A program made the position numbers and the translations under genes. The notes under the pieces are model-generated. The model was given only the letters and a program-made list of their open reading frames with translations. It was not told where the DNA came from and searched no databases. Positions 529 to 43,056 of a stretch of DNA of 64,000 nucleotides are shown here, piece after piece; the first letter of the stretch is position 1; every line of letters begins with the position of its first letter. The stretch lies in IMG/VR virus record IMGVR_UViG_3300022204_000005; one strand, given 5' to 3'. This DNA is from a virus.

Positions 529-587
529 CCTCTAAGGTCGCCCCCCTGGGAGGGAGGGGGGCGGGTCGGTTCGATTCCGGCCAGAGG
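529..587 (+). ncRNA. tRNA-like element (acceptor-like stem + one GC arm + T-arm)
   Basis: CCTCT/AGAGG closing stem; CGCCCCC/GGGGGCG arm; GGTCGG-TTCGATT-CCGGCC T-arm. Confidence 0.5.
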
Positions 588-674
588 TTTTAAGGTCACG
601 ACGGTCATTGTGATTGTCGGGCCACAACCGCCCCACTGCTTTAGCGGGGGCACCATCACAACGGAGCTTTACCG

Positions 675-1109
675 ATGTCTGACAACAACACCATTCATGG
701 CTTTCCCTGCACCGACACCGACACCGACGGCGTTGTGTTCGTGAACACGACGCCTCACGAAGTGAAGATCTACGGGGAGGGGGGAGAGCTTCTCTTCTCC
801 ATCCCCGCCCCCGGCAAGGGCGGTCCCTCGGTGAGGGTTCGGGAGAGGTGTGAACGGGTGGGAACCGTGGGGGGCGTCCCCACGGTGATTCTCACCCCCG
901 CTGGGGTGGAGGGGCTCCCCGCCCCGGGGGAGAATGTGTTTTATGTCATCTCGGGGATGGCCCTCGACAACCTCCGACAGGGGGGGGACGAGCGGGGGGA
1001 CGTGATCGCCCCTGTCACCTCCCCCGACGAAAACGTCCCGGAGGAGTTCCGGCCCCTCCGGGACCCCGTAAAGGGGTGGATTCTCGGGGCGAGGGCTTGG
1101 CGCTGCTAA
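675..1109 (+). CDS. conserved phage hypothetical protein (N-T/L-TPH motif type)
   Basis: VFVNTTPHEVKI...GLPAP...YVIS pattern recalls a widespread phage family; GGAG SD. Confidence 0.65.
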   Translation: MSDNNTIHGFPCTDTDTDGVVFVNTTPHEVKIYGEGGELLFSIPAPGKGGPSVRVRERCERVGTVGGVPTVILTPAGVEGLPAPGENVFYVISGMALDNLRQGGDERGDVIAPVTSPDENVPEEFRPLRDPVKGWILGARAWRC

Positions 1110-1162
1110 GCCCTTCCTGACCCCCGCTTCTGCGCCCCCCTCCCCCCCGTGGGGGGTTTCTC

Positions 1163-1196
1163 TTGAGGGCATTAGCTTCGCTGCTAGTGCCTTCAA
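1163..1196 (+). repeat. conserved intergenic hairpin copy 1 (RNase III-like site)
   Basis: GAGGGCATTAGC-loop-GCTAGTGCCTTC; same stem at 3150 and 4508. Confidence 0.8.
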
Positions 1197-1231
1197 AAGA
1201 AGCCCTAACCATCAACTAGAGGAGTCTTACC

Positions 1232-1567
1232 ATGCCGACCCCTATTCACCTCCCAAAGTGCTGCCCCTCTTGTGGGGAGCCTTTTAACGGCACCCCACCT
1301 GGGGAGGTCATGGAGTTCTATATCGAAGACCTCGCTTTCGACGAGGGTAACGGCGGGGCAGTAACGCTTTGGGGGTGGAGTTGCCCTCGAAGCTCCCAGA
1401 AAGGCGACCATCTCATTTATGGGACGGTCGTTAAAGCCAGGGATGGGGAGGGTAACATCACTGAGATGTTATCCACTGACCATTCTTACCTGACGGACCT
1501 TCCGGGTCGGGAGTGGTCAGTGTACCCCCTGACCGACCCGACGACCTTTGTCATCAAAACCAACTAG
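1232..1567 (+). CDS. hypothetical protein (CxxC near N-terminus)
   Basis: ORF track; TAGAGGAGTCTTACCATG start context, identical to that at 1580. Confidence 0.7.
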   Translation: MPTPIHLPKCCPSCGEPFNGTPPGEVMEFYIEDLAFDEGNGGAVTLWGWSCPRSSQKGDHLIYGTVVKARDGEGNITEMLSTDHSYLTDLPGREWSVYPLTDPTTFVIKTN

Positions 1568-1579
1568 AGGAGTCTTACC

Positions 1580-2167
1580 ATGCTCACCACCGACAAGCTC
1601 CCCCTCCCCGATTTCTTCGCGGTCGAAAACATCCATCGCGGGGCTCGCAACCTCGCCAAAATCCACGCCAACATGGGTACCCCGTGGGGAACCTTCGTCG
1701 CCGTGGCGTTGCATATGCGGCACCACGCCCCGGTCAGGCCGAAAACCATGACCTTGGAGTCGCTTTTCGAGGCGGCGCTGGAGAAGCGCCCCGAGCCCGT
1801 GTGGTTCGTGGAGGCCGTTTCGCCCCACCTTCGGGAGCGGCTGTTGGGGATGGTGGAAGCCTCCCTCCACTGCATCCTGGCAGACTGTGAGGAGCTTCGA
1901 GGCTATCAGGAGTGGGCGGAAATGTTCGATAGCCTCTGCGAGCGCAGAGAGATGATGCAGGCGTGCATCCAATTAATGCAGGACACCCCCGAATACGCCA
2001 TTGCGAGGGAAACGGCGCGGGAAATCGATGGGGTTATTGAGATGTCCTTCGGGATGTCTCGACCCTACCCCTCCGCTACCGATTTCATGATTTCCGCCGC
2101 CTCGCTCGGTGACGGCTGGTGGATTCCCGAGTTTCCGGGCGGGGAGGTGATTCCTTTCGATTTCTGA
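1580..2167 (+). CDS. hypothetical protein
   Basis: ORF track; TAGAGGAGTCTTACCATG start context. Confidence 0.7.
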   Translation: MLTTDKLPLPDFFAVENIHRGARNLAKIHANMGTPWGTFVAVALHMRHHAPVRPKTMTLESLFEAALEKRPEPVWFVEAVSPHLRERLLGMVEASLHCILADCEELRGYQEWAEMFDSLCERREMMQACIQLMQDTPEYAIARETAREIDGVIEMSFGMSRPYPSATDFMISAASLGDGWWIPEFPGGEVIPFDF

Positions 2168-2180
2168 AGTATTTTCGCTC

Positions 2181-2225
2181 GAAAGTGATCAAATAGGGTA
2201 CGAGACGGTCTATCAAATAGAGGAG
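2181..2225 (+). promoter_or_regulatory. putative phage promoter module X, copy 1
   Basis: GAAAGTGATCAAATAGGGTACGAGACGGTCTAT matches 28877-28909 at 32/33 nt; intergenic. Confidence 0.55.
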
Positions 2226-2300
2226 GTTAAACCCACACAACGAAACCAGTTCCTAACACAACGAAACAAACACAACCACACAACCACAGGAGAAAACACA

Positions 2301-2798
2301 ATGACTACCTTTACCCTCGAAACGAACGGGCTCGTTACGCTCACCTCCCCCAAGACGGGACACCACCGGACCTTCCTTATCCGCACCGAGAAGTGGAAGG
2401 GAAACGGCAAGTGGGCTCCCCGCAAGGTGCGGGTCGTGTCCCTCTTCGTGGGGGACAAGAATACGAATAACAACCATTTCCTCCGCTTCGGGGAGGTGCG
2501 GGAGCAGGGGGGGGAGTATCGTATCCACCTCTTCAAAGAGGTGTATACGAAGGGCGTCCCCAAGAAATTCTGGGGAAAGAAACCCGAGCGAAAGACATTC
2601 GCGGCCTTCGCAAAGCTCCTCGAAGAGCCCGCAAAGGCTGAGGGAGCGGGGGTCAAATTCCTGGCCTCGGTGAAGTGTTGCAGGTGCAACCTGACCTTGA
2701 CGGACCCCGAATCCATCGAAAATGGCTTTGGCGACGAGTGCGCCAAGTACATCCGGCGGGGTGAGGGGCGCACCGAACGCCCGGTCATGGTCGCCTAA
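2301..2798 (+). CDS. DUF6011-like Zn-finger protein
   Basis: C-terminal CCRCNLTLTDPESIENGFGDEC motif; AGGAG SD. Confidence 0.7.
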   Translation: MTTFTLETNGLVTLTSPKTGHHRTFLIRTEKWKGNGKWAPRKVRVVSLFVGDKNTNNNHFLRFGEVREQGGEYRIHLFKEVYTKGVPKKFWGKKPERKTFAAFAKLLEEPAKAEGAGVKFLASVKCCRCNLTLTDPESIENGFGDECAKYIRRGEGRTERPVMVA

Positions 2799-41548: not shown

Positions 41549-41592
41549 TTGGTTACCATAGAGAGAGAACACATTAAGGACACAAACACACT

Positions 41593-42009
41593 ATGAATGA
41601 ACAAACTCTTTTAAAAACAGAAGAAGTTAAGATTACTTCTCATAGAGCAATTTTCAGAGGTAAAACTTTTGCCCTGAACAACATTACCAGCGTGGAGACG
41701 CATCGAGTCCCTCCAAATAATTTGGGGCCGGGAATAGTCTGCCTTATTGGGATAGTACTTTTCTTTACAGGGATTGCTATGCTTTTAGGGGGTGTTGGGG
41801 AGCCCGAAAAGATGTTCCAAGGAGGTTCGTCCTTGTTTGTAGGTATCTTAATCTTTGTAGCGAGCATCTATATGTTCCGCACATCAACACCCACCTATTT
41901 CGTGCGCTTAACCACCAATGCAGGGCAAAATAAAGCTTTTGGTTCCAAGGACAAAAAGCCCGTTGATGAAATTGTCATCGCTTTAAACAAAGCAATTGCA
42001 TTAAGATAA
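41593..42009 (+). CDS. DUF6232-like membrane protein
   Basis: V.ITSHR.IF.GKTFAL.NITSV, two TM helices, Y.VRLTT.AG...A.....PVDEIV.ALNKAI. Confidence 0.65.
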   Translation: MNEQTLLKTEEVKITSHRAIFRGKTFALNNITSVETHRVPPNNLGPGIVCLIGIVLFFTGIAMLLGGVGEPEKMFQGGSSLFVGILIFVASIYMFRTSTPTYFVRLTTNAGQNKAFGSKDKKPVDEIVIALNKAIALR

Positions 42010-42012
42010 ACT

Positions 42013-42291
42013 ATGGATATTGACAATATCATTCTTTGTTTGAGATACTCTCAAACCTTTGAAGCTTTTGTTGAAAGTTTCAATGCCCTTTGTCCGATGG
42101 AAAGCTTCGAAGCTGAAATAACGGATGATGAAGATAAAGTCATTGTCATCAATTGGATTGGGGAGTATGAAGCTATTTACATTGGTAGCCTCGATCCTCT
42201 CGTAGCAGACTTAGGGCGGGGAGGGGTGGAACAAAACCACCATACCGTCGCTAAAGCCATTATGGATTTGTACAACCCAAAGGAACTTTAA
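42013..42291 (+). CDS. hypothetical protein
   Basis: ORF track. Confidence 0.6.
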   Translation: MDIDNIILCLRYSQTFEAFVESFNALCPMESFEAEITDDEDKVIVINWIGEYEAIYIGSLDPLVADLGRGGVEQNHHTVAKAIMDLYNPKEL

Positions 42292-42294
42292 AAA

Positions 42295-42540
42295 ATGAAA
42301 GTCATTGGATATCAGGTAACCGCTCAAGTTTATTGCTGTAAGGGATGTAAGATTCTTTTCACAGACGTTGAAGACGAAGACCTCTCCCATACAAAAGAAC
42401 GGATGCTTTTCAATATGCCGGTAAAACAAATCCGGACTGAGAAAGCATTGGAATGCCCTGAATGCAATCGAATGATTGACGAGACTGAGCTATCCCAATC
42501 GGCAGTACGTCTACCGCTTTATCGTCTTATGGAAAATTGA
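42295..42540 (+). CDS. hypothetical Zn-binding protein
   Basis: CCKGC...CPEC. Confidence 0.6.
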   Translation: MKVIGYQVTAQVYCCKGCKILFTDVEDEDLSHTKERMLFNMPVKQIRTEKALECPECNRMIDETELSQSAVRLPLYRLMEN

Positions 42541-42654
42541 TCTTTGTTTCGATGGGGTGGGTGTCGCTTTAATCGCCCTAAAGCCGTGTAGCTCTTGTTC
42601 ACGACCCCCTCGGCACTCCTAGTTTTCATCTATTGCTAGGAGCACGCCACTCTA

Positions 42655-42698
42655 AAACCTCTGCAGTACGTCTAGAGGCAAAACAGAGCAAACGTGCA
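42655..42698 (+). ncRNA. 44-nt H-type pseudoknot motif, copy 2
   Basis: 39/44 identical to copy 1; loop GTACGT pairs with ACGTGC. Confidence 0.65.
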
Positions 42699-42923
42699 CC
42701 CCACTATTGACCACCAAAACGGCAATAGAGGGACCCAAAACAATATGTCGCGAGGATATGTTGTTTTGAGTTAGAAAAGATTTCCTGTAACTTGATTTGG
42801 AGAACGTTTGTGCTTCTCCTTTGAGCGGTTATAAGAAAACCCTGTCTAACAGACACCCCCAGGTTTTTAACTTTATACTTCTAGGTTATCTCCTAAACCT
42901 AGAATATAAGTTAGAGACCATCT

Positions 42924-42989
42924 GGTCCTATCGTCTAATTGGGAAGACACCTTGCGCAGGTAATAGAGGTTCGAGCCCTCTTGGGACCA
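42924..42989 (+). ncRNA. tRNA-Glu-like body with truncated anticodon arm (66 nt)
   Basis: acceptor GGTCCTA/TGGGACC; D-arm GTCT/AGAC; arm only CCT-TGCGC-AGG; T-arm AGAGG-TTCGAGC-CCTCT. Confidence 0.65.
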
Positions 42990-42990
42990 A

Positions 42991-43056
42991 TGCCCGTAGC
43001 ATATAGGCTATTGCGCTGTCGACGGCAGAGGAGTAGGTTCGATTCCTACCGGGCGC
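42991..43056 (+). ncRNA. second tRNA body with truncated anticodon arm
   Basis: acceptor TGCCCG/CGGGCG; D-arm GCA/TGC; arm CTGTC-GAC-GGCAG; T-arm GTAGG-TTCGATT-CCTAC. Confidence 0.6.

Follow-up and report, generated by a model that had tools for sequence, protein, structure and literature searches.

A stretch of DNA of 64,000 nucleotides (nt) from an uncultured phage, the IMG/VR record IMGVR_UViG_3300022204_000005 (the whole of which is hereafter the window), carries, in addition to about ten real genes for transfer RNA (tRNA), a series of tRNA look-alikes, here designated E1 to E9, which retain near-perfect acceptor stems of 6-9 base pairs (bp) and canonical T arms around a centre that has been deleted, shrunk or expanded. 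On account of the loss of a usable anticodon arm, these look-alikes are unable to decode. They belong to the "tRNA-like stable RNA" type of the phages T5 and T4 and do not form a new class; rather, they are a genuine case, with many members, of a kind that is known but has yet to be explained. As regards their role, the tentatively preferred explanation is that they act as handles for the host RNase P, RNase Z and CCA-adding enzyme within long early transcripts, a possibility that falls somewhat short of being probable.

The presence of these elements is apparent from two kinds of scan. A search of both strands of the window with the T-arm motif GGTTCRAKYCC recovered 12 occurrences, all on the + strand, as against 0.61 expected by chance: the seven elements listed in an earlier note on this DNA, four real tRNAs and one match inside an open reading frame (ORF). 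While the motif search itself imposes no stem requirement, 11 of the 12 matches are accompanied by a closing stem of 6-9 pairs. The remaining one, at 49195-49205 (GGTTCGAGCCC), did not qualify as an element, given its lack of a closing stem and its position inside the ORF 49142-49399; it is either a chance occurrence or a remnant. A frame scan, which looks for a 5-bp T stem closed by G-C, a TTCRA loop and an abutting 7-nt strand pairing with an upstream 7-mer 38-124 nt away, found 14 matches on the + strand and none on the - strand (Markov-shuffle mean 0.3), eight of these being the eight tRNAs on which ARAGORN and Rfam agree. When 6-bp stems, a one-base offset and spans of up to 400 nt were accepted, the relaxed scan found 16 matches on the + strand and one on the - strand (shuffle mean 1.1). 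Every element lies in an intergenic position between called + strand genes. Thus, all seven previously listed elements are indeed present where the earlier note placed them, intergenic, on the coding strand and far in excess of chance, and its central observation, namely that the acceptor/T-arm top half is retained while the decoding capacity is gone, holds. Two of its generalizations were too broad: the anticodon region is not the only part to have been remodelled, as the minihelices also lack a D arm, and the stems are not uniformly intact, with E1 and E7 each having one acceptor mismatch.

Inspection of the predicted folds, all on the + strand, shows that the elements differ from each other chiefly in their central regions. 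E2 (6240..6282) and E3 (39292..39345, also in the frame scan) are top-half minihelices. The former combines a 7-bp closing stem (6240-6246 paired with 6275-6281) with a 10-nt linker and the T arm GGGGG TTCGATT CCCCC, and the latter a 7-8-bp acceptor with a 21-nt linker and a T arm; both linkers contain GG and both T arms are canonical. E4 (39882..39965; frame scan, fold z-score -2.2) and E5 (41461..41548; fold z-score -3.8, with none of 200 shuffles folding as well) are cloverleaves with a 7-bp acceptor, U8, a 4-bp D stem with a GG loop, the same T stem and an over-long central arm, which is capped by a 5-nt loop in E4 and comprises 12-14 bp with an 8-nt loop in E5. E6 (42924..42989) presents a complete tRNA body with U8, A14, G18G19, a 4-nt variable loop and a canonical T arm, in which the anticodon arm amounts to only 11 nt, i.e., 3 bp and a 5-nt loop. 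Directly adjoining it, without a spacer and in a manner resembling a dimeric tRNA precursor, E7 (42990..43057) is a second tRNA body with a 13-nt anticodon arm that can be drawn as 5 bp with a 3-nt loop or as 4 bp with a 5-nt loop. In the Rfam alignment, 5 nt occupy the 11 (E6) and 9 (E7) central positions of the anticodon arm. Given the established geometry of tRNA, neither E6 nor E7 is able to position an anticodon where the ribosome needs it.

Two elements are added here to the seven noted before. E8 (33929..34079) was picked up by the frame scan as a 150-nt tRNA-framed RNA, which has a closing stem CCCCGA/TCGGGG, three internal hairpins and the T arm TGAGG TTCGATA CCTCA; its fold has a z-score of -4.2, with none of 200 shuffles as good, and it lies within the 189-nt gap between the genes 33424-33918 and 34108-34599. 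E9 (39572..39639), recovered by the relaxed frame scan, is a weaker case: its closing stem has 7 bp, its central hairpin has 8 bp and a 5-nt loop, and in its T-like arm A53-U61 replaces G53-C61; it can also be read as a terminator-like hairpin.

E1 (514..590) is ambiguous, being tRNA-shaped but readable either as an aberrant tRNA-Pro(GGG) or as a look-alike with a 9-bp G+C central hairpin. It was placed at 529-587 in the earlier note, and a T arm and a 5-bp closing stem are present there; ARAGORN with default settings instead draws a 77-nt cloverleaf at 514-590 and calls it tRNA-Pro(ggg), with the 7-nt loop C-U-GGG-A-G. Hence, for this element alone it is possible, if somewhat doubtful, that it functions, though atypical, as a tRNA-Pro(GGG) for the left end of the genome, which is rich in G+C, the first 2 kilobases (kb) of the window having a G+C content of 63%. 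This is countered by several features: a 6-kb search with the Rfam tRNA model gave no match at E<=10, GG is missing from the D loop, the acceptor contains one mismatch and the anticodon stem another (C-A), an extra C stands between the T stem and the acceptor, and the thermodynamic fold favours a 9-bp hairpin with the loop GGGAGGG. More generally, the region 1-12000 of the window, which houses E1 and E2, has a G+C content of 51-63% as against 42-49% over most of the remainder, and the junction between the two is continuous in two assemblies, probably from the same reads.

Comparison with RNA family models further delineates how far these elements differ from tRNA. Against the Rfam tRNA family (RF00005; gathering threshold 29 bits), E6 and E7 score 43.1 and 35.2 bits, respectively, whereas E1-E5, E8 and E9 have no match at E<=10. 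With canonical tRNAs all elements have the T arm and acceptor in common, but the 5-bp stem with a 7-nt anticodon loop and U33 is not seen: the arms of E4-E7 are abnormal, E2 and E3 are armless and that of E1 is arguable. Other Rfam models of tRNA mimics and large phage RNAs (YrlA/Y RNA, mascRNA, ROOL, GOLLD, skipping-rope and others) have no match on the elements at E<=10, and the mascRNA model touches real tRNAs only, below its threshold. The transfer-messenger RNA (tmRNA) model (RF00023) aligns with just the T arm of E2, at 21.7 bits versus a threshold of 47, and E2 has no G3:U70, tag ORF or pseudoknots; it is thus not a tmRNA, even though the tRNA-like domain of tmRNA, like the look-alikes, combines an acceptor and a T arm without an anticodon arm. 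Nor could a parent isotype be assigned to any element by alignment to the tRNAs of T4, T5 and the phage itself; a blastn search retrieved only a weak match, that of E6 to a tRNA-Gln-like D arm. A tRNA remnant of an attP or integration site was likewise rejected, in view of the presence of both acceptor strands in the elements and the absence of any integrase family among the called genes, precomputed Pfam matches or profile scans.

These results bear on the classes and expectations set out in the earlier note. Of its three minihelices, E2 and E3 are true top halves while E1 is not clearly one; its class of shrunken arms is borne out by the 11- and 13-nt anticodon arms of E6 and E7, with the proviso that both exceed the Rfam tRNA threshold as complete bodies. 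It had expected tRNA finders to miss the elements or to call them pseudo or undetermined, and had suggested the tRNA, YrlA and tmRNA models as a check: only E6 and E7 pass the tRNA model and none passes the other two, but ARAGORN calls E1 by default and, under relaxed settings, E7 as tRNA-Asp(gtc), a call that we reject as it requires the D arm to be sacrificed. There is a practical consequence for annotation: covariance-model pipelines would report E6 and E7 as tRNAs and ARAGORN would report E1, thereby inflating the decoding repertoire of the phage.

The location of the elements provides a hint of a role. E3-E9 lie within a + strand tRNA island (33225..46970, i.e., 33.2-47.0 kb) delimited by ARAGORN and Rfam, with E1 and E2 27-33 kb away. 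With respect to the ORFs, E2, E3 and E8 start 0-11 nt past stop codons, the first base of E2 being the last base of the upstream stop codon (0 nt after the stop) and E3 beginning 4 nt past the stop codon of the ORF 38977-39288, while E4, E5 and E7 lie 24-47 nt ahead of start codons. Eight + strand tRNAs are called in the island by both ARAGORN and Rfam, namely tRNA-Leu-taa (33225), tRNA-Trp (36477), tRNA-Met (37097), tRNA-Leu-tag (37196), tRNA-Thr (38578), tRNA-Ile (38771), tRNA-Arg-tct (41005) and tRNA-Val-tac (46895); when introns were permitted, ARAGORN also called tRNA-Lys(ttt) at 45787-46480, interrupted by a 618-nt insert. Promoter-like sites of the form TTGACA-N17-TAnnnT number 16 on the + strand (spanning 7144-59652) and none on the - strand, with 1.7 expected. 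Six of these sigma-70-type consensus sites, all on the + strand (33141, 36447, 37052, 38520, 45746 and 46854), end 3-57 nt ahead of the Leu-taa, Trp, Met, Thr, Lys and Val tRNAs, and another, at 40710, stands 267 nt ahead of tRNA-Arg and heads its structured leader. In contrast, no such site occurs within 60 nt upstream of any look-alike, there being merely 9-of-12 matches before E4 and E6. Real tRNAs head transcription units, whereas the look-alikes sit inside these units, after or before ORFs. The sites at 36447 and 37052 are near-duplicates of each other and contain the hairpin CTCCGGGGAG.

Under the preferred explanation, the look-alikes would derive from tRNAs and would have retained the tRNA elbow, in the form of the acceptor stem and T arm together with, in most cases, a D region bearing GG. 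They would make up internal segments of long early transcripts on the + strand that start from the sigma-70-type promoters, mostly those just upstream of a real tRNA. Each element would then be cut on its 5' flank by RNase P and on its 3' flank by RNase Z or exonucleases, after which the CCA-adding enzyme would cap the resulting end; CCA is encoded by neither the tRNAs nor the look-alikes. In this way, the polycistronic RNA would be split, presumably to the benefit of the phage, into defined mRNAs and neighbouring structured RNAs, leaving behind stable tRNA-shaped pieces. Such handles account for the retention of the top half, the freedom of the centre to vary, the mid-operon placement and a shared trailer: the sequence (C)T(T)GGTT directly follows the discriminator in tRNA-Leu-tag (37278-37286), tRNA-Ile (38842-38850), tRNA-Arg (41080-41087) and E5 (41548-41555), and may be a common 3'-processing signal. 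A precedent is furnished by the t-elements of plant mitochondria (Forner et al. 2007, PMC1920247), which were found with GGTTCRANYCC, coincide with mapped mRNA ends and carry non-encoded C, CC or CA, with the ends implicating RNase P, RNase Z and the CCA-adding enzyme. Like the present elements, these are non-canonical tRNA-like folds with the same T-arm motif adjoining mRNA ends, and they match the proposed mechanism; they are, however, organellar and without common ancestry, and cleavage has been demonstrated there while it is conjectural here. Of the two functions put forward in the earlier note, punctuation of phage transcripts is hence in keeping with the operon placement, the lack of promoters, the trailer of E5 and the t-element precedent, whereas the alternative, a cleavage-resistant decoy, is without positive evidence and mechanistically awkward for nucleases that recognize their substrates by the anticodon loop.

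The broader version of that alternative, which we regard as unlikely, is that the look-alikes are tRNA mimics acting in trans, either as stable decoys or carriers for a host tRNA-binding factor (a tRNA-targeting defence nuclease, a CCA-adding or repair enzyme, a synthetase or EF-Tu) or as nuclease-resistant scaffolds displaying central hairpins, as in E5 and E8. E6 and E7 do keep every tertiary-contact position of an L-shaped tRNA with an arm too short for cutting or decoding, and in E5 and E8 the folding of the central arms is far superior to that of shuffled sequences, which a bare cleavage signal does not call for. Further, passages of two publications (PMC10264068, PMC11555353) already propose that phage tRNAs counter anticodon nucleases. 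Set against this, the look-alikes are without the strong promoters of their own that the real tRNAs have, such that abundance at the level required of a decoy is not evident; to nucleases that read the anticodon loop, these RNAs would offer no binding site; and the neighbourhood offers no gene for tRNA repair or tRNA binding except for a sub-threshold GatB/YqeY match at 45255-45491. A more specific form of the idea, wherein above all the tandem E6-E7 would be trans-acting sponges for a host tRNA-binding protein and the real tRNAs replacements, appears improbable.

The assignment of the look-alikes to a known type rests on their comparison with T5 and T4. The T5 record (NC_005859) labels rna1 and rna2 as "tRNA-like stable RNA with unknown functions" and rna3 as "putative tRNA-like RNA", and annotates five further stable RNAs in the tRNA island, interspersed among tRNAs, small ORFs, HNH genes and promoters. 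The folds of both rna1 and rna2 have an acceptor, a D arm and a canonical T arm along with an expanded centre, and the frame scan used here recovers them along with T4 rnaC, none of which ARAGORN calls as a tRNA. Thus, rna1 and rna2 share with the present elements the closing stem and T arm, the altered centre and the lack of a tRNA call, and the setting is also shared, with a same-strand island of tRNAs, small ORFs, an HNH gene, promoters and stable RNAs in both (here holding E3-E9). Even the T5 order of promoter, RNAX and tRNA-Arg is mirrored by the promoter at 40710, the 267-nt structured leader and tRNA-Arg. At the same time, there is no sequence similarity between the T5 RNAs and the present elements, there are more look-alikes per real tRNA here (7-9 look-alikes to about 10 tRNAs), and the bare 42-54-nt minihelices right after stop codons and the shortening confined to the anticodon arm are seen here but not in T5. 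Moreover, the T5 RNAs have been observed as stable RNAs, while the present elements are known from sequence alone. As a side observation, the 719-nt T5 RNAX itself contains an ARAGORN tRNA-Ser(act) and an acceptor/T-arm frame at T5 41431-41504 (- strand; L019 21432-21505), neither of which is annotated in the record.

In T4, the counterpart is rnaC (species 1 RNA), a 139-nt stable RNA that ends the tRNA cluster. It contains a 91-nt frame in which a 7-bp closing stem and the T arm CCGGG TTCGAAT CCCGG surround internal hairpins, as in E8, but it is a single copy there as opposed to a family of differing designs here. The roles of T4 RNAC and RNAD are stated to be unknown in a review (PMC3014915). 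With RNAs of this design already annotated in T5 and T4, the novelty implied by the earlier note is unsupported.

Another way to account for the look-alikes is as relics, i.e., dead tRNA genes in a rapidly rearranging island, with the anticodon region as a hot spot by virtue of intron homing or endonuclease cutting and the top halves seemingly intact only because the damage is recent or because the search was based on the T arm. This is judged to be quite unlikely, but several observations are in line with it: the search was indeed ascertained on an intact T loop, E1, E7 and E9 have imperfections, and one tRNA-Gln in the T5 record is marked as a pseudogene. The tRNA-Lys(UUU) of the island also illustrates the kind of event envisaged, in that its anticodon loop, just past the anticodon region, is split by the 618-nt insert, in which an HNH_3 ORF lies at 45841-46329 and a group I intron model matches weakly, at 24 bits. 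Conversely, the closing stems of 6-9 pairs in 11 of the 12 T-arm matches were not demanded by the search, the adjoining E6 and E7 are both 4-6 nt shorter in the same arm with the shortened arms still paired, helices of 12-14 bp are not expected from random insertions, and compact phage genomes seldom retain about 2 kb of useless DNA.

Evolutionary comparison bears on both the relic and the handle explanations, albeit through one relative. A megablast search against 50,697 phage records returned only a 58-nt tRNA-like match, protein-guided scans of IMG/VR found no related phage, and a scan of JGI metagenomes found only cellular homologues of the FtsH-like protein described below. Neighbouring proteins of 282, 560 and 138 amino acids (aa) were orphans in word-indexed and exhaustive protein searches, and ten neighbouring proteins form singleton clusters. 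One lake-water metagenome, however, contains a partial relative with about 90% identity. In the listed part of that alignment, the non-coding segments 39394-39488 and 39560-39638 (E9) have two differences each (~2%) as compared with 19 of 229 (~8%) in the next ORF, a pattern of stronger conservation of the non-coding pieces than of the adjacent ORF that is not expected of relics. E9 is accordingly kept with two changes in 79 nt, which affect both partners of a single central-stem pair (U-G to C-A). On the other hand, the segments 39489-39559 and 39639-40096 are replaced or unalignable in a cassette-like fashion that relics could explain, and 45477-46440 is replaced by 86 other letters, such that the relative apparently lacks the tRNA-Lys intron. 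On this thin basis, the comparison suggests that the RNA modules are conserved and exchanged as cassettes.

Certain points weigh against the look-alikes being processing handles. In E5 and E8, the central arms are long and perfectly paired, beyond what a cleavage signal alone needs, and this hints at a further role. E1, E2 and E8 have a 13-layer instead of a 12-layer acceptor/T stack, or a bulge at the junction, which could impair the measuring by RNase P. E4 lies in the stretch 39639-40096 that is unaligned in the only relative and, at the least, may therefore be dispensable. The counterparts in T5 and T4 are themselves without a settled role. Finally, a search for RNA runs containing this DNA found none.

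The role of tRNA-like stable RNAs of phages has been a standing question since the tRNA regions of T4 and T5 were sequenced. To this question the present island contributes a natural deletion and insertion series, in which the sole constant across 7-9 unrelated copies is the acceptor/T-arm top half with its GG-bearing linker. This constancy points to a reader of the tRNA elbow and acceptor end, and not the ribosome, as the partner of these RNAs, and the contrast in promoters between the real tRNAs and the look-alikes is a concrete clue for a role in cis.

Beyond the look-alikes, the three large ORF-free gaps of the island amount to about 1.2 kb of strongly structured non-coding RNA on the + strand: a segment between E3 and E4 that holds E9 (39346..39881; fold z-score -6.8), the leader between the promoter at 40710 and tRNA-Arg (40745..41004; z-score -6.8) and a segment upstream of E6 and E7 (42541..42923; z-score -7.1). 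No Rfam family, including ROOL and GOLLD, matches any of the three.

The DNA of the window also occurs as a 77.5-kb contig of a sediment metagenome. Its long ORFs are all on the + strand and are mostly orphans; the recognizable proteins, namely an FtsH-like AAA protease, a DUF932 protein, a SprT-like protein, a NADAR protein, an HNH protein and a pentapeptide-repeat protein, are typical of the early region of a large phage. No tRNA-processing or RNA-repair enzyme was found among the 40 ORFs scanned. Over its N-terminal 290 residues, the FtsH-like protein, with AAA and M41 protease domains (43104-45251), is 60-75% identical to its closest homologues, which occur only in cellular loci of the fvmX type in bins resembling Myxococcota and Planctomycetota. 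In these loci it is flanked by fvmX5, a protein of about 410 aa and an fvmX3 analogue, partners which the phage copy lacks, and no tRNA-like elements were found upstream of them. Given this restriction to cellular loci, the phage gene is probably a captured host conflict-system gene and no guide to the relatives of the phage. It is followed by a 78-aa ORF (45255-45491), the source of the above-mentioned GatB/YqeY match, in which the tRNA-binding domain scores 22.7 bits versus a cut-off of 27; because this ORF is similar neither to the cellular fvmX3 analogue nor to T5.081, the "tRNA amidotransferase" of T5, a relationship with either was rejected. The pentapeptide-repeat protein (127 bits) is encoded at 17293-17793 among orphan early genes, and proteins with this fold are often DNA mimics.

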